From a virus: DNA of 48,107 nucleotides. The stretch lies in the UHGV virus genome UHGV-0209651; one strand, given 5' to 3'. Positions 3,412-20,716 of the stretch are shown here, in pieces. The first letter of the stretch is position 1. Every line of letters begins with the position of its first letter. Made by a program: the position numbers and the translations under genes. A model generated the notes under the pieces. That model made no database searches, was not told the DNA's origin, and saw only the letters and a list, made by a program, of their open reading frames with translations.

Positions 3412-4644
3412 ATGACGACAATCTCTACGGCGGTACCGGCCGTGACATTTTCCACCACTGGCCTTGATGTTCCAGATGAGGGAGACATTCTTGCCGGGCG
3501 TATAGCGGATATTGGTTCTGCATTCGGGACGGCGATGAGCACGAACCTCAAGACGCCGCAGGGGCAACTGGCTGTCACTGATACTGCAATCATCGCAGAC
3601 AAGAATGATCAGCTTCTGGCTATCGTCAACAACATGAACCCGGACTTTTCCTCCGGCAGATTTCAGGATGGCATCGGCAGGATTTACTTCCTCGATCGCA
3701 TTGCTGCTGCGGGTACGGTTGTAACAGCCACATGTTCCGGCGTGCCGGGAACGGTTATTCCGGCACAGTCTTATGCAACCGACGATAACGGTTATATGTA
3801 CGTGTCCCTGGCGGCCGGAACGATAGGCGCAGACGGGACGGTAAAAATTGAGTTCCAGAACCTGACTACCGGGCCGATAGCTTGCCCCATCGGCACGCTT
3901 ACAAACATCTATGTCGCGGTAAGTGGCTGGTCGAGTATCACCAACGAGACCGCGGGTGTACCGGGCTCGAATGTTGAAGGGCGATCTGCATTTGAGTATC
4001 GCCGTCGCCAGTCAGTGGCACGTAACGCCTTCAACACGGCAGCGGCTGTGCGGGCTGCTGTCCTGGAAGTCGACGGGGTGCTTGATGTTTATGTGATCGA
4101 CAACAAAGAGCCCACTTCCGTCGAAAAAGGTTCCACGAATTACACGCTGCTGGCCAGCTCGATTTATATCGGGGTTTATGGCGGGGCAGTGGCAGACATT
4201 GCAGCGGCCATCAATAAAAAACTTCCCCCGGGCACCGTTATGAACGGTGACACCACCGGAACCGTGCAGGATACCGAAAATTATGACGCCCCTTATCCGG
4301 AGTACACCTACAGGTGGAAAACGCTGGATGCGGTGAGCGTTCATATCAAGGTGGAATACGAAGCGAATGATGGCCTTCCCTCAGATATCAACGCGCAGAT
4401 CAGAACGGTCGTCCTGAATGCCTTTACCGGCGCAGATGGCGGTACCCGGGCGCGTGCCGGCGCGCGAATTTATGGCAGCCGGTATATCGGCCCTATCCAG
4501 GCGCTCGATGCACAGAACATGAACGTTCTTTCGGTCCAGATATCCCTGGACGGAACAACCTGGTCTAGTGCGCTGACTATGGGGATTGATCAGGAACCGA
4601 CTCTCGATGCGACAAACATCATAACGGAGGCGGTAAGTGAATAA
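3412..4644 (+). CDS. baseplate J-like protein (Mu gp47-like)
   Basis: ATG at 3412 with a GAGGAAAAA RBS. About 410 aa, at the baseplate-J position. Confidence 0.7.
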   Translation: MTTISTAVPAVTFSTTGLDVPDEGDILAGRIADIGSAFGTAMSTNLKTPQGQLAVTDTAIIADKNDQLLAIVNNMNPDFSSGRFQDGIGRIYFLDRIAAAGTVVTATCSGVPGTVIPAQSYATDDNGYMYVSLAAGTIGADGTVKIEFQNLTTGPIACPIGTLTNIYVAVSGWSSITNETAGVPGSNVEGRSAFEYRRRQSVARNAFNTAAAVRAAVLEVDGVLDVYVIDNKEPTSVEKGSTNYTLLASSIYIGVYGGAVADIAAAINKKLPPGTVMNGDTTGTVQDTENYDAPYPEYTYRWKTLDAVSVHIKVEYEANDGLPSDINAQIRTVVLNAFTGADGGTRARAGARIYGSRYIGPIQALDAQNMNVLSVQISLDGTTWSSALTMGIDQEPTLDATNIITEAVSE

Positions 4645-5224
4645 TGTCGACTGGACGATCTACGCGCAGTACGTGAACTCAACCAGCCTGCGGTCACTGA
4701 TTGATACCTTTAACGCTTCCGTAGCGCCAGAGGACTGGATAGACACGTTCTATGACCTCGTATTCAACATCGAGACCTGTGGAGATTACGGGCTGATGTG
4801 CTGGGGTAAAATCGTTGATGTAGAGCGTTTGCTGACTGTGACGCCATCCCAGCAGTTTCTGGGGTTTGGCGAAGCGACCAGCACCCCGGCAGAACTCACC
4901 GACCCGCAACCCTTTAACCAGGCGCCTTTCTATACCGGCGTGCAGGACACGAACACTGTGGTCCTGACCAATGATGCATACCGCAAGCTGATCATGTGCA
5001 AAGCGATGGCGAACATCAGCGACTGCACCGTTCCGGTCATGAATCGCATGCTGATGTACATGTTCGGCGCCAGCGGGCGGGCTTACGTGCGTGACGATGG
5101 CAACCATGTCATGAGCTACGTATTCGAATTCCAGCTTTCCGATTCTGAGCTGGCCATAGTGCAAAGCTCCGGCGCGCTTCCTTCCCCTCCCGGGGTAAAA
5201 GTTAACATCGTTCAGGAGGTCTGA
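4637..5224 (+). CDS. tail protein, Mu gp48-like (DUF2313-type)
   Basis: 195 aa, overlapping the J gene. Precedes the fibre gene as in Mu-like tails. Confidence 0.6.
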   Translation: MNNVDWTIYAQYVNSTSLRSLIDTFNASVAPEDWIDTFYDLVFNIETCGDYGLMCWGKIVDVERLLTVTPSQQFLGFGEATSTPAELTDPQPFNQAPFYTGVQDTNTVVLTNDAYRKLIMCKAMANISDCTVPVMNRMLMYMFGASGRAYVRDDGNHVMSYVFEFQLSDSELAIVQSSGALPSPPGVKVNIVQEV

Positions 5225-5225
5225 A

Positions 5226-6395
5226 TTGAATAATTCAGCTATACCGTCACGTCTTACGGTTGTCTTTTCTGTGGGCGGCGATAAAAACACGATCCCGGTC
5301 AATTCCACTTCTGAAACGCTGGCTAATGGCCTGGCGGCGATGGATTCCGGATTTCCCCCTCTGACTCGGAAAGCACTTTCTGCCGGCGGTAAGCCACCAA
5401 GAGGGGAGGATTTTAATGGTATCTACAACGACATCTACACTCGCCTGCAGTGGGGTAGCGCGGGAATGGGATTTCCATTCAGCGCAGATTTTAGCGAGGC
5501 TATTGCGGGCTATCCAAAAGGTGCGCTTATTCCGAACTCTGATTATACGGGCCAATGGTTAAATCTTAACAATGGCAACCGCTCCTCCCCCGAATCCACT
5601 TCGGGCGCTAATACCGGGTGGGTTCCTGTGGGGGGATATGGAATTTCTACTATTTCGTCTCTGTCAAATTCCAGTGTTACGCTATCTTCGGCGCAGGCAT
5701 CAAAGGACCGCCTGATTCTTACCGGTTCGCTGACAGGGAATATCAATATGATTTTCCCCGCTTGGATGAAGTCATGGACTATTGAAAACCGCTGCTCTGG
5801 AAATTTCTCTGTCACATGCAAAACAGCATCCGGAAGCGGCATTGCCGTTCCGTCCGGTCGAGTTGAAAAACTGTATTGTGATGGCGTGAGTATCCTGCGC
5901 GATTTCGGCACGGCAGCAATGAGGAATGTTGGCACCGCGACGTCGCGAGATGTTCCTGACATGAGTAATTTCCCACGAGATGATAATCCTGAGTCTGGCT
6001 ATTTTTACCTGCCAAATGGACACCTATCGCAGTACGGAACTGTCAATTTACCCGCAGTAGGCACATTTAACCCGGCGTCGTTCGGTGGTGTTACTTATTA
6101 CACCAGGTACTACATTGTCGATTTCCCTGTGGCATACCCAAATGCGCAGATATCAACCGTCGTTAGCCTGGCCGGTAAGACTTTTGACTCACAGTCAAAT
6201 GAGTTCGGTTCATGGGCAAACAGCAACCGAACCTTAAATTCAGGGCAGCCAGTTTCCAAAAATCAGTTTGTTGGTAAGCGTGCAGCGAGAACCGTATTGA
6301 CGGGGATGTGTTATTCAGTTGGCAGTGCTACGCGCCAGGGGAGTAGTTCGCTGACCCGGTTTATCGGCCAGTCAGCAATGACGTCAAGGACATAA
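5226..6395 (+). CDS. tail fibre protein whose 3' end is interrupted by IS66
   Basis: TTG start 7 nt after GGAGG. The native reading frame is 5226-6273 plus 8736-8798, ending ...NQFVVSVTSNNPNLVPVIHYKSEGY*. In the window the last 21 native codons are replaced by 40 IS-encoded codons. Confidence 0.6.
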   Translation: MNNSAIPSRLTVVFSVGGDKNTIPVNSTSETLANGLAAMDSGFPPLTRKALSAGGKPPRGEDFNGIYNDIYTRLQWGSAGMGFPFSADFSEAIAGYPKGALIPNSDYTGQWLNLNNGNRSSPESTSGANTGWVPVGGYGISTISSLSNSSVTLSSAQASKDRLILTGSLTGNINMIFPAWMKSWTIENRCSGNFSVTCKTASGSGIAVPSGRVEKLYCDGVSILRDFGTAAMRNVGTATSRDVPDMSNFPRDDNPESGYFYLPNGHLSQYGTVNLPAVGTFNPASFGGVTYYTRYYIVDFPVAYPNAQISTVVSLAGKTFDSQSNEFGSWANSNRTLNSGQPVSKNQFVGKRAARTVLTGMCYSVGSATRQGSSSLTRFIGQSAMTSRT

Positions 6396-7849
6396 CGGAG
6401 GTAGCTTTCTGGCTCCACGCCGTTCAGTTTGCATGTCCCGATCAGGCTGTACAGCAGCGCTCCCCGCTCTCCTCCATGATCCGAACCGAAGAACAGGTAG
6501 TTTTTGCGGCCCAGGCTGACCATCCGTAGCGCATTCTCAGCTATGTTGTTATCTGCCTCGGCCCAGCCGTCGTCAGTATAGTAAGCCAGCGCCGGCCACT
6601 GGTTCAGTACGTACGTGAACGCTTTCGCCAGTTCTGAGTGTCGCGACAGCGTTTTCACCTTTTCACGCAGCCAGCTTTCCAGGGATTTCAGCCGCGGTTT
6701 AGCTTTTTGCTGACGTTCTGCAAGGCGTCGCTTCGCCGGCATCCCCCTTATTTCCGCCTCGATGGCATATAACTCACCGATCCGTTTCAGGGCTTCCTCC
6801 GTCAGCGCTGACGGGGTGCGAACGTGCACATCGTGGATCTTGCGGCGGGCATGAGCCCAGCAGGCAGCTTCCGTTATCTGTCCATTGCGGTACAGTTCGT
6901 TGAACCCGGCGTACGCATCCGCCTGCAGCACTCCGCTGAACCCCGCAAGATGGGTCTGCGGGTGGATACCTTTTCTGTCCGGGCTGTAAGCGAACCACAC
7001 TGCCGGCGCCAGCTCTGACCCGGCGTTACGGTCGTCACGAACGTACGTCCACAACCGCCCGGTCTTCGTTTTCTTATTACCTGGCAACAGCACCGGGACA
7101 GGCGTGTCATCAGCATGGAGCTTACCGTCAGTCAGCACATAGTCCTGAAGCGCCCCTTCCAGCGGTGACAGTAGCCGGCAACACGCATCCACCCAGCCCG
7201 ACAGCAGTGAGCGGCTCAGCTCCACACCCTGGCGGCCGTATATTTCAGACTGGCGGTACAGCGGGGTGTGCTCTGCATACTTTGAACTCAGCACGCGGGC
7301 CAGCAGCCCCGGTCCTGCGATACCCCGCTCGATGGGCCGTGAAGGCGCGGGGGCCTGCACGATGGCATCGCACTGAGTACAGGCATGCTTTTCACGTACT
7401 GTCCGGATAACCCGGAAGGCGCTGCGCATCAGCTCCAGCTGTTCGGCGGCATCTTCACCCAGGTAACTCAGCGCACCACCACATTCCGGGCAGCATGACG
7501 CTGCCGGCAGCAGCCGTTTTTCGTCACGGGGAAGTGATTCAGGGAACGGTTTGCGGGTACGGGTCTGCCGCAGCGGGCGCTGCACGGCCGGGTCATCCAC
7601 CCGGCCGGTAAGGGTATCGCTTTCTTTCTGCAACTGCTTAAGGTCGGCTTCCATCTTCGCGATACGGCGGGAGACTTTTTCGGAGCGGCTGCCGAAGTTC
7701 ATCCGGCGCAGCTTATCCAGTTGCGCCTGCAGGTGATCTATTTCGCGTTCACGCTCGTTCAGCTTTTCCAGAAGGGCACGGTTCAGCGCCTCCTGTTCGG
7801 CAAGGAGACGTTTCAGTTCATCGATATCGTCAGGAAGTAAGCTGTTCAT
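6311..7849 (-). CDS. IS66-family transposase
   Basis: 512 aa. Coiled-coil N-terminus, a CCPECGG zinc motif and a DDE-type core typical of IS66 transposases. Confidence 0.9.
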   Translation of the reverse strand: MNSLLPDDIDELKRLLAEQEALNRALLEKLNEREREIDHLQAQLDKLRRMNFGSRSEKVSRRIAKMEADLKQLQKESDTLTGRVDDPAVQRPLRQTRTRKPFPESLPRDEKRLLPAASCCPECGGALSYLGEDAAEQLELMRSAFRVIRTVREKHACTQCDAIVQAPAPSRPIERGIAGPGLLARVLSSKYAEHTPLYRQSEIYGRQGVELSRSLLSGWVDACCRLLSPLEGALQDYVLTDGKLHADDTPVPVLLPGNKKTKTGRLWTYVRDDRNAGSELAPAVWFAYSPDRKGIHPQTHLAGFSGVLQADAYAGFNELYRNGQITEAACWAHARRKIHDVHVRTPSALTEEALKRIGELYAIEAEIRGMPAKRRLAERQQKAKPRLKSLESWLREKVKTLSRHSELAKAFTYVLNQWPALAYYTDDGWAEADNNIAENALRMVSLGRKNYLFFGSDHGGERGALLYSLIGTCKLNGVEPESYLRYVLDVIADWPINRVSELLPWRVALPTE

Positions 7850-7897
7850 ACCGGGTATATTACCAGGCTCATTCAGCGTCGACCAGGATAAAGAGGC

Positions 7898-8245
7898 CTA
7901 CAACATAGTCAGTGACGTAAGCAGTCTTTTAGGCTGCCGCCAGTCGATACCTTCAAGGAGCATCGCCAGCTGTGCCGGTGTGAGGAACACTTTGCCATCC
8001 CGGGCTGACGGCCAGGCGAAGCGGCCGCGCTCCAGCCGTTTGGTCAGCAGACACAGTCCATCGCCGGTAGACCAGAGGAGCTTTACCTGACTGCCATTAC
8101 GCCCACGGAAGATAAAAACGTGACCTGACATCGGATCGTCTTTCAGCGTCGTCTGCACCTTTGCCGCCAGGCCGTTGAAGCCGTTTCTCATATCGGTGAT
8201 GCCAGCGACCAGCCAGATCTTTGTCCCTGATGGTAATGGGATCAA
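7898..8245 (-). CDS. IS66 Orf2 (TnpB-like accessory protein)
   Basis: 115 aa with conserved IS66 orf2 motifs (IWLVAGITDMRNGFNGLA...). Confidence 0.85.
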   Translation of the reverse strand: MIPLPSGTKIWLVAGITDMRNGFNGLAAKVQTTLKDDPMSGHVFIFRGRNGSQVKLLWSTGDGLCLLTKRLERGRFAWPSARDGKVFLTPAQLAMLLEGIDWRQPKRLLTSLTML

Positions 8246-8646
8246 CGTTTGAGCTCCCGTATCAGCAGGTTCAGGATATTTTCGCTGATGGCACCATTCA
8301 GACGGAGTGATCCGTGCCGGAACGTCACTTCACAGCTGATATTGAGTGATTCAGGTGCCGCAGCAGCTACAGGTTGTGACCGGGGGGAGGTTGCAGGAAC
8401 AACATCTTCGGCATCAAGTGTTATCGGGAGCAGCTCAGGCACGTTGTTTTCTGTTGTTGAAGGAGGACGTAGTTTTCCTTCGCGCCAGTACTGGCGCCAC
8501 TTGAACAGCAAATTATCGTTGATCCCATGCTCACGAGCGAGTTGCGCTACGGAGATCTCTGGTCGATGCGAGAGTTCAACCATTTTGATTTTGAACTCAA
8601 CGGGATAATTAGGGCTTTTTTTACGCACTACGGTTAATGATTTCAT
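8242..8646 (-). CDS. IS66 Orf1 (HTH accessory protein)
   Basis: 134 aa with an N-terminal HTH. Overlaps orf2 by 4 nt. Confidence 0.8.
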   Translation of the reverse strand: MKSLTVVRKKSPNYPVEFKIKMVELSHRPEISVAQLAREHGINDNLLFKWRQYWREGKLRPPSTTENNVPELLPITLDAEDVVPATSPRSQPVAAAAPESLNISCEVTFRHGSLRLNGAISENILNLLIRELKR

Positions 8647-8799
8647 GGATAGCGTCCACCATATTTGGTGTCCACTATCCTCTCAGGAATATCAGGATCT
8701 GCCAGACGGTGCTGAGACGACGCTTACGTTTGTTGTATCCGTCACTTCAAACAACCCGAATCTTGTCCCTGTTATCCACTACAAATCAGAAGGCTACTA

Positions 8800-11433
8800 A
8801 TGGCTACTACAGACACCCAACAGGCCGCGCAATTTTCTGCTGAGGCAGCAGTTAGTGCTGCCGAAGCAAAACAATATTTAATTGAAGCTCAGCAGGGTTA
8901 TCAGGATACCAGCGCAGCGGCGCAAGAAGCTAAAGATGCTGCCGCAGCAGCAGCAACATCAGAGCAAAATGCCACATATTCAGAGGCTAACGCAGCTCAG
9001 TCAGCAGCGGCAGCAGTGGATGCAAAAGATGATGCGGAGGCGGCTGCTAGTAGTGCTTCAGACTACGCAAAGAACAAATTCACATTCTATAAGACTGCCA
9101 GCGATCCTGATGGCACCATTGCAGGGCTGGCAGCAACTACTGATGGCCAGTCGTTCTGGGTATCCCAGGGCCCAGATGCGCTTTCCGCTGCATGGCAGTA
9201 TCAAAACAAAGCAGGCGTGGCCGTATTGCAGGCGAAGCAGCCGGGTACAGCGGCCATAACAGGGACAATCCGCGAGTTTCCGACGCTGGCTGCGGCGCAG
9301 GCAGACGCAGATGCTGGCAACATACCGGTAGGATCAACTGCGTATTACCGTAGCCCGGACGACAGCGCGCTCGCGATCGAAGTCATGAACATTGGCGGGA
9401 CGCTGGAGGCTACCGGCAGAGCAGTGCCGTCACAACAAGCCGTGGATAATAAAGCCATCACCTCCGGGGATATTTTCAGCTCACTGTCACCGAGAGGTGC
9501 TGCACTGAACGGCGGCTCCGTCATCACTGACGCGTCAAACAGAACTATCGGGCTGCTGGTCCCTGCGGGCTCTACAGGCGGTTCGTCATATTTCTGTTCA
9601 GACATTCCCGCTGCTGCGTTGCGCGGACGAACCGTAAAAATCACGCAGATTTACACGGCGACAGAGGGGTGGCTGAGCACCGTCAACCTGAACACGTTAC
9701 GCGCTCAGTCTCGTGTAGGCGGTACGGTTTCCACCCTGGAGGTAACAGATTACTCGGTATCCCAGACCGGTGCAGTTATTACACAAACAGCGACAGTGGT
9801 TGTGCCTGCTGACGCTGATTACGTGGGCCTGGCTTTCCAGTACGCGTCAAATGCCGCCGTCAAATCGGCCGATATGTCTGTTCAGCTCGCGCAAACCGGC
9901 TATATCATGCAACCGATAGCGGGCAGCATGGTCACGCAGAATGACGGAATGCTCGCCCTGCGGCTCGCGCCGTTATCTGCTGCGGTTATTGCTGCCCAGG
10001 CCACAGCAAACAGCGCACTACTGACGTCTGGTGACGTGTGGGGTGACAATGTGTCGGCCAAGGGGACAGGCGCTGCTCTGAACGGGGCAACTACAATTCT
10101 GGACTCATCCGGAAACGTTGTCGGCCTGAGCATTCCCGCTAACGCTGGTACTGCACAGGGGAGCTATGTGACCTCATGGATGAGCGCAGAGGGTCTGTCC
10201 GGACATACGCTCAATATCACCGCGACGTTTACCACCTCGGCAGGATGGAACGCTGACCCAGCACCTAACACGCTGGCGCTACAGGTCAGGCGTAGCAGTG
10301 GTCAGGTCAACGTCGCTGTCGGGAGTGGCGCTACGCGTACAATTACGCAGAATGGCACCACAATGACGATTGCCATTCAGTACACAGTTGACCCGGCCGA
10401 CATTGATATCGGTGTGTGCTATCAGGTTGCGGGCGGTAATTCTGCTAAATCCTATGACCGCAGCATGCAGACCCAGTCCATCTCGTACACGGTGGTGCCT
10501 GCGGCAGGTGAAACCCTCAATAAAACGATGCTCTCAATCTTTATTGATGAGGCTATTCGTCAGATGCAGAACGGCGGCGAGACAATCACCGTTACCGTAA
10601 AGCCAAGCGGTGGCGACTATACACACCCGAAATTGGCGCTTGACCATATCACTGACGCTACGGCGATGAAGCGTTACGTAATCGCCGTTTACCCCGGCAC
10701 CTACACTGGCTATGCCGAGTGGGCCACGAAAAACTATGTCGATATTATTGGCATGGGCCGTAAAGAGGAGGTCATTGTCAGTTATGACAGTGGCGATGAC
10801 GCAGATCAGGCAACGGTGCGGGGTACATCTCTGTTCTGGATGGCCTCAGAAACTCTGCTCAAAAACCTGACGCTGAAAATCAAAAACGGTCGCTACTGTA
10901 TCCACATGGAGGGTAACGGGGCCACGCCTGATGTCACGATGGCTATTGAGGATTGTTCTGTCATTCACGAGGGGAACGCCAGCGACACATACTGGTGGCA
11001 ACCGTCGCAATACGGTGTCGGCGCCGGCCTGTCAGCAGGTAACACGGTAAGACTGCGAAATAGTTATTTCGAGGGCCGTGGTGGCGGGTTTAGCTATCAC
11101 ACTCCTAATAACCGGGTAGCTTACACGAAACCCATAACGGTTGACGCGGAGGGATGCACTTTCAAGAATACAGGTACTCTGCCGAATACAGGCTATCCAT
11201 ACGACGGCTCATTCTGGATCAAGCCAATTTGCATCGGTGCGGCAGATACATGCCGGCTCGTTGGCAACACGTTTATCGGTGGTGGGGTTTACTACTCAAC
11301 AGGCGAATGGCTTGATACTGCAGATACCACAACAAACAGGGCACAGGTTCAGGTGTGGGGTTACGGTAACACTGGATTTTCGTTCTACAGCAATGAGGAC
11401 TACACGCCCAATATGACAGGGATAAATAGTTAG
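8800..11433 (+). CDS. tailspike/tail fibre protein with a beta-helix depolymerase-like domain
   Basis: 877 aa. The N-terminus is an Ala/Gln-rich anchor region. The centre and C-terminus are Gly/Thr/Ser/Asn-rich and repetitive, like pectate-lyase-fold capsule depolymerases. Its ATG overlaps the native stop of the upstream fibre gene (TAATGG). Confidence 0.65.
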   Translation: MATTDTQQAAQFSAEAAVSAAEAKQYLIEAQQGYQDTSAAAQEAKDAAAAAATSEQNATYSEANAAQSAAAAVDAKDDAEAAASSASDYAKNKFTFYKTASDPDGTIAGLAATTDGQSFWVSQGPDALSAAWQYQNKAGVAVLQAKQPGTAAITGTIREFPTLAAAQADADAGNIPVGSTAYYRSPDDSALAIEVMNIGGTLEATGRAVPSQQAVDNKAITSGDIFSSLSPRGAALNGGSVITDASNRTIGLLVPAGSTGGSSYFCSDIPAAALRGRTVKITQIYTATEGWLSTVNLNTLRAQSRVGGTVSTLEVTDYSVSQTGAVITQTATVVVPADADYVGLAFQYASNAAVKSADMSVQLAQTGYIMQPIAGSMVTQNDGMLALRLAPLSAAVIAAQATANSALLTSGDVWGDNVSAKGTGAALNGATTILDSSGNVVGLSIPANAGTAQGSYVTSWMSAEGLSGHTLNITATFTTSAGWNADPAPNTLALQVRRSSGQVNVAVGSGATRTITQNGTTMTIAIQYTVDPADIDIGVCYQVAGGNSAKSYDRSMQTQSISYTVVPAAGETLNKTMLSIFIDEAIRQMQNGGETITVTVKPSGGDYTHPKLALDHITDATAMKRYVIAVYPGTYTGYAEWATKNYVDIIGMGRKEEVIVSYDSGDDADQATVRGTSLFWMASETLLKNLTLKIKNGRYCIHMEGNGATPDVTMAIEDCSVIHEGNASDTYWWQPSQYGVGAGLSAGNTVRLRNSYFEGRGGGFSYHTPNNRVAYTKPITVDAEGCTFKNTGTLPNTGYPYDGSFWIKPICIGAADTCRLVGNTFIGGGVYYSTGEWLDTADTTTNRAQVQVWGYGNTGFSFYSNEDYTPNMTGINS

Positions 11434-17475: not shown

Positions 17476-17839
17476 GCGACACCCCAGCAAAACTCAAAGC
17501 TTACCCATGCAACCGCAATCACAAGCAGAGCAACCTTTAAGCAGAACCGGTGCCATGCAGGTACTTCGTGTTCTCGGATCATTCTTCAGTACCTCGAAAA
17601 TTAATCTCATGCAGCCTGAGAAGCCCACGCCCTTGCGTCACGACGATTAAGCCATGCCAACTTAACCCACAGGTCATGAACCCCATCACCTCGGCGAGTA
17701 TTGCGGCATTTCTCGCGGTACCGGAGATACTCGGAATTGCACTCAAGGGCATATTTTTTTGCGGTCATCTCTTCACCTTTGCCTTATCGCGGCTAACGGG
17801 ACGTTTTGACTTCACCCCGGCGTTGCCGGTGTTGTTTGT

Positions 17840-17945
17840 ATGATATGATAATGTACTAATGGTTCATCAATGTAAAGTACCAAAAGTACATTTTTGATTT
17901 GGTAATAGTTCATTTCAATGTAAGTCAATGAACTTAAAGTATATT
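17840..17945. promoter_or_regulatory. putative oL/pL operator-promoter region
   Basis: A very AT-rich block with repeated (A/G)GTTCAT / ATGAACT and GTAC motifs, including the inverted repeat AGTTCAT-N13-ATGAACT. The same GAACT/AGTTC motifs occur in the cI-cro intergenic region. Confidence 0.35.
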
Positions 17946-18036
17946 TATTTTGTGTTTTGTTTTTGGTAGGGGTTGTTTGGCTGTGGAGCTGGCACTGGAC
18001 GTGCTGATGCTGAGGGAAGAGTAGGGCAGTAATAAC

Positions 18037-18056
18037 CCGGCACGAGGCCGGGTTTT
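18037..18056. terminator. hairpin terminator (aacccggc-acga-gccgggtt, then TTTTGTT on the plus strand)
   Basis: An 8-bp GC-rich stem sitting between the cargo gene block and the oL-like region. Confidence 0.4.
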
Positions 18057-18057
18057 G

Positions 18058-18165
18058 TTACTGCTCGTTGTAATTTTTAGCGTTCGTTTTCTGAGGGGGT
18101 TGAGAGCTAAACTTCTGGTTTATAATTATTTTATAAGCGCTATCAAGAGCTTGTTTAACGGACAT
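18058..18165 (-). CDS. small ORF (35 aa) downstream of the cargo gene
   Basis: ORF not in the track. AGGAGA RBS at a 6-nt spacing. Confidence 0.3.
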   Translation of the reverse strand: MSVKQALDSAYKIIINQKFSSQPPQKTNAKNYNEQ

Positions 18166-18193
18166 TTGATTCTCCTAAAGTTGGTAACTGTTG

Positions 18194-19495
18194 TTAGCGT
18201 TTGAAAAAGTTAGAATTTAACTCTTTCGGGAAATAGTGCTTTCTTTTAACCCAAACAAAGCCATCTACTTTTGATAATACAGCAACATCGACTGGACCGC
18301 CAACAGTCTCATATTCATGAGATACTTTTCGTTTGAAAGCCGTTAGGTTAACCAAAGATTCCGCCATATATGCTAAGTCTGCCTTGCCAAGAGACTGAAG
18401 CATCGATGTCATCTTCTTGGTATGATTGTTTTCAATGTAACTGTTCAACTTATTATCGTAATCACTCATAATTAAATTTTTGAGTTGAGAAACTTCGGTT
18501 TTAAATTGACCTTCTAGTAGTTGATTGTTTAAACTCGGGTATATATTACTTTCAATAAAATTATTGAGTCTGTCGAATATTTCTTCGCTGAGTGTGTTGG
18601 TGAAAACATTAATGTTAGGGTTGCAACCATCAATAAATGTTAGCACTTCATCTTCTTGGGCGAATGGTATTACATATCCATTATTCGAAATATTATTGTG
18701 TGTTTTATCTTCAACGTATCTAAACATAATTCTGTCTTTGTATATGCCGAATACATGGAGTGTATTTATAGATGGGTAAAATTCATTATCACCGTAACCG
18801 GTGATGACTATACCTGAGTATGTCCGACTAGTGTGCACCTTACATATTAAATAAGAGGAATATAATATTATTTTGTCAATTAAATCTTCCTCTAAACTCT
18901 CAAAGTTATCAAGCACTATAACCGACGGGATTAATGGTTTTATTACATCTGAGATATATGTGATGATTTCGCCTAAGTCGCGCTCATCAAAACCTTCAAA
19001 GAAAGGGTTGTTTCGCAATGCGTTGATTTCATTATCAATTTGTTGTTTTACTATGCTTTGAAATATATTGTTATTTATGTTAGTTCCAGGGTTTAAAGTT
19101 AAATAGTTAACAATGTTGTTACTGTTAATGTGTTGCATCAACCCTTTTATATTATCTATAACTAAATTTATTACGCACGATTGGCGCATGCTGGGAGTTA
19201 TTAAGTCCTCGTTTTTATTGATGTAATGTAGGAAATCATGAACATAATCATTAACGGTACCAAATTTTTCGGTGCCAAGCTGCTTTCTATATGATTTTAT
19301 AATCAGTTCCCAGGGGGCTCCCCCTAGAGCAGCGTTATTATAAACCATAATCCCAACAGGGTGATGCTTTGATAGTTCAAACAGCTTTTCAGCGCTGTTA
19401 TTAATTTTTATAAGCCTATTGTGTTCAGTCGTAACAGCTGAATCAGCTGCTAGGGCGATCCCTGTGTTATTAATAACTACTATTTCAGCTGTCAT
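18194..19495 (-). CDS. AT-rich 433-aa cargo protein with a putative N-terminal Ntn-hydrolase (proteasome-beta/HslV-like) domain
   Basis: AGGGAG RBS. Very low GC and a codon usage unlike the rest of the phage. The N-terminus MTAEIVVINNTGIALAADSAVTTE..K..PVG matches the Thr1/Asp17/Lys~33/Gly47 spacing of proteasome-type Ntn hydrolases (pattern match from memory). Co-oriented with and downstream of cI. Confidence 0.6.
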   Translation of the reverse strand: MTAEIVVINNTGIALAADSAVTTEHNRLIKINNSAEKLFELSKHHPVGIMVYNNAALGGAPWELIIKSYRKQLGTEKFGTVNDYVHDFLHYINKNEDLITPSMRQSCVINLVIDNIKGLMQHINSNNIVNYLTLNPGTNINNNIFQSIVKQQIDNEINALRNNPFFEGFDERDLGEIITYISDVIKPLIPSVIVLDNFESLEEDLIDKIILYSSYLICKVHTSRTYSGIVITGYGDNEFYPSINTLHVFGIYKDRIMFRYVEDKTHNNISNNGYVIPFAQEDEVLTFIDGCNPNINVFTNTLSEEIFDRLNNFIESNIYPSLNNQLLEGQFKTEVSQLKNLIMSDYDNKLNSYIENNHTKKMTSMLQSLGKADLAYMAESLVNLTAFKRKVSHEYETVGGPVDVAVLSKVDGFVWVKRKHYFPKELNSNFFKR

Positions 19496-19791
19496 ACATT
19501 ACTCCCTTTCATCATAGATTTGTGGAAAGTCTAATCATTGTTGCGGAATCAACTCTACTCAAATGTGAAAGCCCATTAATAACAAGATATGGATCCAGAT
19601 TATTCAGATCACCTATTGCCACTTCTTCAACTCAAACCTCTTTTACAGGAAAATAATTGGAAATTTCCTTGGCGGGGCGATATTGGCTTTATCTCATTAA
19701 CCATTTGATTTTCCTTGTTAAATTGTGGCGGGCAAACGCCATTTTTCGTCTTTCTAGATCACCCAAACATCTCTTCAGGCCACTTGCTGGC

Positions 19792-19820
19792 TACCCATGC
19801 TTCCTGTACGTCTTCGGCAT
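19792..19820. repeat. 29-bp direct repeat, copy A (TACCCATGCTTCCTGTACGTCTtCGGCAT); copy B lies at 19995-20023 inside the cI 3' end
   Basis: 28 of 29 bases identical. The copies bracket the 40-aa membrane-peptide gene. Confidence 0.8.
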
Positions 19821-19848: not shown

Positions 19849-19971
19849 GGCTCACTCAAAGTCATCCCGCTCATCCCTTCGCTTGAAGAAAATCTTATCC
19901 AGCCTGAGCACTATCCCAACCAGTCCGATAATCAGTAAAGTAATGAGTATTGGGATAATCAGATCAGACAT
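19849..19971 (-). CDS. small membrane peptide (40 aa), immediately downstream of cI
   Basis: ORF not in the track. AGAGGAAGC RBS. MSDLIIPILITLLIIGLVGIVLRLDKIFFKRRDERDDFE. Starts 22 nt after the cI stop. Confidence 0.4.
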
Positions 19972-19993
19972 GCTTCCTCTGCGTGCTAAAGCT

Positions 19994-20716
19994 TTACCCA
20001 TGCTTCCTGTACGTCTGCGGCATGCTGCCGATCACCTTGCCGAACACGAACACCCGGTTCATCTCGTCTTTCTCGATCGGGTCCCAGGCTGCATAGCTCT
20101 TGTTATCTGAGATAACCAGCAGCTTGTCCTTCATCTTCTGCAGGCGCTTGACGTGAGCAGTGTCGTCGTACAGGAAGGCGTATATCCCGTCGCCGTCGAA
20201 GCTCTTAACGCTGATGTCGACGAACAGCAGATCACCCGGCTCAATCGTCCCAGACATGCTGTCGCCCCGGACGTTGATGATCCGGATGTTCTCAGCCTTA
20301 CGCCCATCGAACATGTGCCGGGCTTCCGCTGGCGCATACTCAACGGAGTGGAGAATCTCCACGAACTCCTGATTGATAATGCCTGGTCCAGCGCTAACCG
20401 TTATATCCAATAGGTCAATGCGAAAGACATCCTTAAGGGTTTGGGTTGCCTCTGTATCGATTCCGTCCTCATCGACATCACCGAGCAGATACGACGCTGA
20501 CGTACCAATGTGAGACGCCAGTGCTTTCAGCGTTCCGCGTCTTGGAATCGACTCTCCATTGAACCATTTGCTTACGGCCTTAGGGGTCAACTTCATCCTC
20601 TTGGCGATCTCAGCCTGTCGACCATGTGGTATCAATCCAGCTTTATCGCAGGCCAGCGCTAGCCTCTGAGAGAATTCTTTTCGCGCTCTTTCTTCATGAA
20701 CCATATGTTCAATCAT
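19994..20716 (-). CDS. cI: CI-type repressor (HTH-XRE plus S24 LexA-like peptidase domain)
   Basis: 240 aa. An N-terminal HTH and a C-terminal ...RGDSM...K autocleavage module. The ATG sits directly at a TATTAT element, so the transcript is probably leaderless as in lambda. Confidence 0.9.
   Translation of the reverse strand: MIEHMVHEERARKEFSQRLALACDKAGLIPHGRQAEIAKRMKLTPKAVSKWFNGESIPRRGTLKALASHIGTSASYLLGDVDEDGIDTEATQTLKDVFRIDLLDITVSAGPGIINQEFVEILHSVEYAPAEARHMFDGRKAENIRIINVRGDSMSGTIEPGDLLFVDISVKSFDGDGIYAFLYDDTAHVKRLQKMKDKLLVISDNKSYAAWDPIEKDEMNRVFVFGKVIGSMPQTYRKHG

Follow-up and report, generated by a model that had tools for sequence, protein, structure and literature searches.

Beyond HslV and the 20S core, prokaryotic homologues of the proteasome are abundant, and almost none of them has a known function. 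Fuchs, Alva and Lupas catalogued 22 new proteasome homologues in 2021, among them those termed PMI, for 'Proteasome homolog with Multiple Insertions' (PMC8665760). The largest PMI group, PMI-4 (representative HDY66466.1), has one long insertion after H1/H2 and another between H3 and H4, and lacks both a propeptide and an S3/S4 insertion; it occurs in most bacterial phyla, Euryarchaeota and phages, has no AAA+ partner and is of unknown function (PMC8665760). No genomic context or co-occurrence pattern suggested what PMI proteins do, and long insertions after H1/H2 were argued to clash in a ring (PMC8665760). Here we analyze virus genome UHGV-0209651, a stretch of 48,107 nucleotides (nt; the window) that is a Klebsiella-type lambdoid prophage. 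At 18194..19495 on its minus strand lies an open reading frame (ORF) of 433 amino acids (aa; N-terminus MTAEIVVINNTGIALAADSAVTTE), with an AAGGGAG Shine-Dalgarno sequence 6 nt 5' of it. We find that the product is a cytoplasmic proteasome-family N-terminal-nucleophile (Ntn) hydrolase, encoded in a two-gene cassette that occupies a slot holding RexAB or BstA in related phages.

RexAB of lambda and BstA of BTP1, two prophage exclusion systems whose genes directly follow cI, share with this cassette the genomic slot and the same presumed lysogenic transcription. RexAB is a sensor plus a membrane ion channel and BstA an abortive-infection (Abi) protein that targets DNA replication; neither has sequence or fold kinship to the protease described here. 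In the e14 prophage, the zinc metalloprotease Lit cleaves EF-Tu and thereby causes abortive infection. A dormant prophage protease acting as anti-phage effector is the working logic that we propose for the cassette as well, although Lit is the product of a single gene and the cassette pairs two genes, one of them for a threonine hydrolase. We found no literature linking proteasome-like or Ntn proteins to phage defence.

A preliminary description of the 433-aa protein had recognized a proteasome-like Ntn signature at its N-terminus and nothing familiar in the ~230 C-terminal residues. In the monomer structure model, the order of elements is S1-S2-(S3-S4)-S5-H1-H2, insertion 1, S6-S9-H3, insertion 2 and H4-S10-S11-H5, with S3-S4 short except for a 3-residue loop. 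This is an alpha-beta-beta-alpha sandwich with the topology of a proteasome subunit, so that the anticipated Ntn fold is seen in the model. Because the order of elements follows the proteasome fold, the ~230 C-terminal residues are the second half of that fold plus an insertion, and the fold is not confined to the N-terminus as had been supposed. We considered the C-terminal half as an unrelated domain and rejected this, as it comprises S6-S11, H3-H5 and the second helical insertion.

The core of the protein corresponds to aa 1-94, 223-292 and 369-433. It is interrupted by two helical insertions, one after H1/H2 (aa 95-222; 18830..19213, minus strand; helices at 101-218 in the model) and one between H3 and H4 (aa 293-368; 18392..18619, minus strand; helices at 293-368 in the model). 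The mean frequency of the major residue is 0.65, 0.47 and 0.81 in the three core segments compared to 0.25 in both insertions, which are thus hypervariable.

An alignment of 40 homologues has an invariant N-terminus (MTAEI...AADSA...K..N.A.KLF) and an invariant C-terminal block (ETVGGP-DVA--SK-DG-W--RK-YF). We scored residues over 336 distinct relatives taken from genomic loci and database matches. Thr2, directly after the initiator Met, is found in 332 of 332 ungapped relatives; Asp18 is found in 335 of 335, as is Lys37, whose surrounding KLF motif is shared with the Thermoplasma beta subunit. Such conservation goes far beyond chance, and the Thr, Asp and Lys of the preliminary description are borne out. 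Lys30 is kept in 333 of 335 relatives, and Gly228, Gly233, Gly235, Asp403, Gly412 and Trp415 are each present in all 336. At position 48 (the Gly47 of the preliminary description) 306 of the 336 relatives have G and 28 have A; at position 53, 237 have G and 77 have N, the latter being also the residue of the window protein. From an alignment to what we take to be the Thermoplasma beta sequence, the oxyanion Gly may be position 53 rather than 48.

All family proteins begin with Met-Thr and have no propeptide. Thr is a residue that permits processing by methionine aminopeptidase, and HslV matures by this route, so that Thr1 should become exposed as the nucleophile. When the profile of the 40-homologue alignment was compared to the PDB, the top three matches were Thermoplasma beta subunits, aligned at GGxIDVAVIxKxDG with an E-value (E) of ~1. 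An hhalign comparison of the family alignment with E. coli HslV places MTAEI opposite MTTIV and AADSA opposite AGDGQ (E 0.44). The family assignment rests on structure and active-site conservation, and on the model it is confirmed.

Searches with the 433-aa protein itself give little: a chance match only in Pfam (Death_Lrrd1, E 0.21), chance-level matches only in NCBIfam 2026 (E 0.02-0.07, far below the curated cut-offs) and no match in the PDB. The only full-length match in PHROGs is to phrog_5990, of unknown function, and the best that a Foldseek search of BFVD yields is a weak match (E 0.03), a phage protein labelled 'proteasome beta'. The family has no name in Pfam, NCBIfam or PADLOC. It is very large and uniform, with more than 6,375 matches in a 90 % clustered database, all named ones being 'hypothetical', and 6,022 clusters at 50 % identity (E<1e-3), nearly all of 415-445 aa and aligned from residue 1. 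Species-representative genomes contribute at least 550 loci, from most phyla of bacteria and several lineages of archaea, whose proteins are 31-37 % identical to the query; the family is also found in phages and satellites.

By insertion architecture and distribution the family best fits PMI-4, an assignment made from the published description. Like PMI-4 it has a proteasome beta-like core, a Thr1/Asp17/Lys33-type triad, no propeptide and two insertion sites; the model shows helical blocks at 101-218 and 293-368 with no S3/S4 insertion, and the distribution takes in bacterial phyla, archaea, phages and satellites. The protein fits PMI-type homologues already catalogued in 2021 (PMC8665760). 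The family is thus already known as an orphan proteasome homologue; its operon structure and mobile-element context appear to be undescribed. The difference from the published description of PMI-4 lies in the conserved small downstream gene and the recurrent prophage and satellite positions found here, where no informative context had been noted (PMC8665760).

The 20S beta subunits and HslV (MEROPS T1) are ~175-220 aa long compared to 433 aa here, where the two extra helical insertions add ~130 and ~75 residues and probably hinder ring assembly. HslVU differs further, as HslV has ~175 aa and no adjacent hslU and no conserved AAA+ neighbour is found among 134 proteins flanking the family. Connectase lacks H1/H2 and has an insertion between S3 and S4, unlike the protein here; it is restricted to methanogens and has no small adjacent partner gene.

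The hydrolase gene does not stand alone. Its distant homologues in phages and satellites have a small ORF immediately 3' of them, and at 80 genomic loci a same-strand small ORF begins within a few nt of the stop codon, the two genes often overlapping by 4 nt. To avoid a circular test, we built a partner profile from 14 such ORFs and ran it against every ORF of 25-200 aa at 89 other loci, 11,285 in all. Each of the 31 matches at E<0.05 was the ORF at the 3' end of the hydrolase gene, with none elsewhere, and a jackhmmer search from a single seed likewise gave 41 of 41 matches at that position. No conserved third gene or AAA+ partner was found among the 134 flanking proteins, whose Pfam families occurred only as singletons or doublets. 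Since the small ORF follows the hydrolase gene almost universally, the unit is a two-gene operon.

The partners are hydrophilic proteins of 35-80 aa. Partners of the majority class are basic at the N-terminus, carry the motif [FY]xSxxE[FWY]xxx[YF][FL]P and have an amphipathic helix at the C-terminus; in the jackhmmer search a gammaproteobacterial class with W..K[FY]LP joins them. In the window, the partner ORF (35 aa, MSVKQALDSAYKIIINQKFSSQPPQKTNAKNYNEQ) is at 18058..18165 on the minus strand with AGGAG 6 nt upstream. It is an enteric short form without the Pro of the motif, kept also in E. coli (MSIKQALNNAYKIIVNQKFGNKEQQHSPKGFNQQ, a called gene of 34 aa) and in Rahnella. Nucleotide homology between the window and E. 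coli cassettes starts exactly at the hydrolase ATG (19495) and reaches into the small ORF (18109). We show the cassette, at ~18056-19583, to be a horizontally acquired two-gene operon.

Public gene calls (L087-L091, locus positions 7292-7678, minus strand of the locus) have a 128-aa antisense ORF instead of the 35-aa gene. It corresponds to ~17818-18204 on the plus strand of the window, across the partner ORF, the hairpin and the oL/pL-like block described below, and the window frame yields 49 aa only. Probably this call is an artefact of annotation, one that conceals the partner gene.

The slot that holds the cassette is variable. Klebsiella phages and E. coli prophages share its flanks and differ in its content: phage ST101-KPC2phi6.1 has RexA-RexB between the same flanks, the slot is empty in phage 2 LV-2017, and E. 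coli Ec1117 carries two small hypothetical genes there. A variable slot between conserved phage flanks, with known defence systems in relatives, is what is expected of defence-hotspot cargo. The cassette also differs from its surroundings in base composition, as the GC content is 0.31-0.35 over the 433-aa gene compared to 0.50-0.56, or about 53 %, in both flanks. The preliminary description had an AT-rich gene downstream of cI on the same strand, in a slot equivalent to that of rexAB; the ORF, the GC drop and the layout agree with this, and so do the RexA-RexB genes of the sister Klebsiella phage and a remnant of bstA in the window.

That remnant, at 19584..19820 on the minus strand, matches the c1 3' end and the bstA 5' end of the Salmonella phage BTP1 immunity region (82.6 % identity, E 3e-59) and is a pseudogene. 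It explains why a cI 3'-end motif is repeated in the window sequence, and why a 36-aa ORF at 19512..19622 (minus strand) gives weak matches to BstA residues 24-56 in PADLOC and PHROGs. We considered this ORF as a real gene and rejected it as a frameshifted bstA fragment. Together, 19584-19820 and the ORF at 19512-19622 contain the c1 3' end and the first ~56 bstA codons, apparently frameshifted. The remnant is wedged between the cI operon and the hydrolase cassette, directly adjoining the latter. The slot thus once held bstA, cut off where the AT-rich cassette now starts, and the remnant is a record of successive cargo replacement at the hotspot.

Upstream of this remnant, a cI-like repressor gene (19994..20716, minus strand; Pfam Peptidase_S24 E 1e-17, HTH_3 E 9e-9) heads the lysogenic transcription unit. 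Between cI and the 433-aa gene are an ORF for a single-pass membrane peptide (ATGGGTAA; 19852..20001, minus strand), whose ATG overlaps the cI stop codon, and then ~350 nt of remnant DNA. The membrane-peptide ORF encodes 49 aa from the first ATG or 39 aa from the second Met and may belong to the immunity operon. Annotations of several sister Klebsiella phages place a 39-aa homologue after cI, irrespective of the downstream cargo. A scan of the minus strand from cI to the 433-aa gene found neither a terminator-like site nor a sigma-70-like promoter, which makes co-transcription with cI the simplest reading of the layout.

On the other side, a GC-rich hairpin detected in a scan for terminator-like sites (18034..18054) would end the immunity-left transcription unit. 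Homology of the flank to Klebsiella phages spans 17800-18055 and includes this hairpin, which is conserved phage backbone and not part of the cassette. The slot is bounded by an oL/pL-like operator-promoter block (17840..17945, minus strand) with promoter-like sites on the minus strand and inverted-repeat motifs; its TGxAC-N5-GTxCA repeats resemble the cI/cro intergenic region. The order of cI, cargo, hairpin and operator is thus that of the lambda cI-rexA-rexB-tIMM-oL/pL layout. Just 3' of the pL-like promoter, an Arg-rich ORF of 53 aa (17607-17768, minus strand) has the position of an N-type antiterminator.

The cassette is not restricted to this phage or this position. At least five mosaic Klebsiella prophages encode an identical protein, the gene lying in every case between cI and the early-left operon, and in an E. 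coli Rac-like prophage a homologue with 70 % identity directly follows another repressor; only 13 of 5,426 complete E. coli genomes have this variant. Among more distant members, those of Enterobacter and Salmonella prophages are encoded on the opposite strand, between Q and the holin gene, and those of Klebsiella, Stenotrophomonas and Providencia phages adjoin lysis cassettes. The Salmonella prophages (L107-L109, locus positions 7131-9441) have a 427-aa homologue and a 44-45-aa partner right after hicA-hicB in the same orientation; hicAB and the cassette lie together on the opposite strand, inserted between Q and the lysis genes as a composite accessory island.

Satellites are a further setting. 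In a Serratia int-alpA-primase satellite the cassette follows the primase gene and is itself followed by a terminator, and in Streptococcus satellites and prophages it is found at the end of the element. The Serratia element (L099-L102, locus positions 3414-9500) has an integrase, AlpA and a Toprim/VapE primase, is inserted beside fis-dusB and looks like a P4/PICI-type satellite; its cassette ends in a strong intrinsic terminator.

Taken together, these observations make a defence function plausible from context. The functional half of the preliminary description, a module for defence or toxicity expressed in the lysogen, would draw on the same context. The cassette is a good defence candidate because its slot holds RexAB or BstA in related phages, and this reading is better grounded by the RexAB/BstA hotspot exchange, the carriage on satellites and the two-gene architecture. 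Hypervariable insertions on a conserved core, low GC and rarity fit an accessory gene under conflict-type selection. That the cassette is a prophage-borne conflict module, acting in anti-phage exclusion or abortive infection, is the best supported of the readings, and we give it even odds.

How might such a module work? The specificity of methionine aminopeptidase suggests that the initiator Met would be removed, leaving Thr as residue 1 as in HslV. Asp18 and Lys37 would complete a proteasome-type triad with it, making the enzyme an active threonine hydrolase once the Met is gone. The helical bundles would most likely act as a lid, or as a specificity or sensor module, gating substrate access, and the insertions probably preclude a classical closed proteasome ring (cf. 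PMC8665760). Translational coupling in most relatives (overlaps of at least 4 nt) would provide the partner in stoichiometric amounts, and the partner may bind and regulate the hydrolase, either as inhibitor or pseudosubstrate or as adaptor. Judging from the operon layout, the cassette would be expressed with cI in the lysogen, and the protease would be kept in check until a superinfecting phage lifts the inhibition or provides a target. The freed protease would then cleave a phage protein or an essential host protein. It is conceivable, more speculatively, that the aromatic P1 residue followed by Pro in the majority [YF][FL]P motif makes a poorly cleavable pseudosubstrate; we place little weight on this idea because the enteric short form does not have the Pro.

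A bolder proposal is that the cassette is the founding example of a prokaryotic immune system based on a proteasome-family threonine protease, in which the mini-protein gates the enzyme, the insertions sense a phage component, and the protease aborts or blocks the infection. This we put forward tentatively, as somewhat short of an even prospect.

Several observations weigh against the conflict-module reading. The literature gave no experimental phenotype for the family. The comparison to HslV by sequence only is in register yet not significant (E 0.44), and PADLOC-DB v2, candidate systems included, gave chance-level matches only (JetB E 0.007, PglZ E 0.035), covering short helical stretches. 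In the jackhmmer search neither the Bacteroidota partner class nor the enteric short form could be linked by sequence to the majority partner; the 35-aa protein of the window may therefore be analogous rather than homologous to it. Co-transcription with cI, removal of the Met, catalysis and the role of the partner are things that we infer. Finally, the immediate neighbours at 70 chromosomal loci are mostly unrelated genes, many of them housekeeping. A minority is of defence type (restriction-modification, a type III restriction endonuclease, DISARM/BREX-type methyltransferases, Upx and a PD-T4-6-like kinase); the survey of neighbourhoods that the preliminary description had proposed shows a mild leaning towards defence. 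Given such heterogeneous neighbours, the association with defence islands outside mobile elements is at best modest.

Other functions can be considered for the same two genes. The compact operon with its small, translationally coupled second gene would also suit a toxin-antitoxin or addiction module, in which the protease would be toxic through cleavage of an essential host protein, with its small neighbour as labile antitoxin or pseudosubstrate; the main role would be to stabilize the element by post-segregational killing, and any defence would be incidental. Carriage on prophages and satellites, the adjoining HicAB in Salmonella prophages and a Zeta-toxin neighbour at two loci all point the same way. 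The partners, however, are hydrophilic proteins of 35-80 aa with no recognizable DNA-binding fold, unlike classical type II antitoxins, and slots exchanging with RexAB and BstA point more specifically to exclusion. We regard addiction as unlikely but credible, and note that it and abortive infection are not mutually exclusive. Alternatively the small protein may be the substrate of its neighbour, cut to a bioactive peptide or, in the manner of connectase, ligated or transpeptidated to a target, with no part in defence. The flanking proteins include no exporter, modification enzyme or conserved third gene; the partner classes diverge so fast that they do not align, as a substrate with a fixed recognition site would not usually do, and the missing motif Pro of the enteric short form speaks against it as well. 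This peptide-processing or ligase role seems to us improbable.

Membership in the proteasome family, the location in the immunity region beside cI and the housekeeping surroundings of some chromosomal copies would be in line with a proteostasis or regulatory protease of direct benefit to prophage or host, either for degradation under stress, as proposed for Anbu, BPH and HslV, or for controlling the lysis-lysogeny decision through cleavage of a regulator. The distribution is difficult to reconcile with this, being patchy, rare and horizontally transferred, as is the foreign base composition. The cassette sits in unrelated slots of unrelated elements (after the repressor, between Q and holin, at satellite ends), which argues against regulation of one phage, and no conserved AAA+ unfoldase is encoded nearby (flanking proteins; likewise PMC8665760). 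We rate this role a shade less probable again. A phage-borne protease could in principle inactivate host immune proteins, and an anti-defence role would follow from this. The gene is found, though, in slots of the lysogeny type or in moron slots on the opposite strand and not in early lytic operons, and also in satellites and at many non-prophage chromosomal loci of bacteria and archaea; we find this role very improbable.

What the present analysis supplies is a testable context for an abundant and otherwise orphan protein: a self-contained two-gene operon, placed in lysogenic-conversion and defence slots, with a conserved core and hypervariable insertions. If the cassette acts in phage defence, it would bring a new enzymatic class, a Thr-Ntn protease, into bacterial immunity, and one of the largest families of orphan proteasome homologues would gain a function. 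Proteasome-type proteolysis would then be tied to antiviral immunity in prokaryotes, in a module spread by prophages and satellites, and the Klebsiella and E. coli prophages would offer a small, easily cloned 1.5-kb system for mechanistic work. Should the cassette turn out to be toxin-antitoxin-like or a peptide-processing pair instead, this would still be the first function for a family of several thousand clusters.

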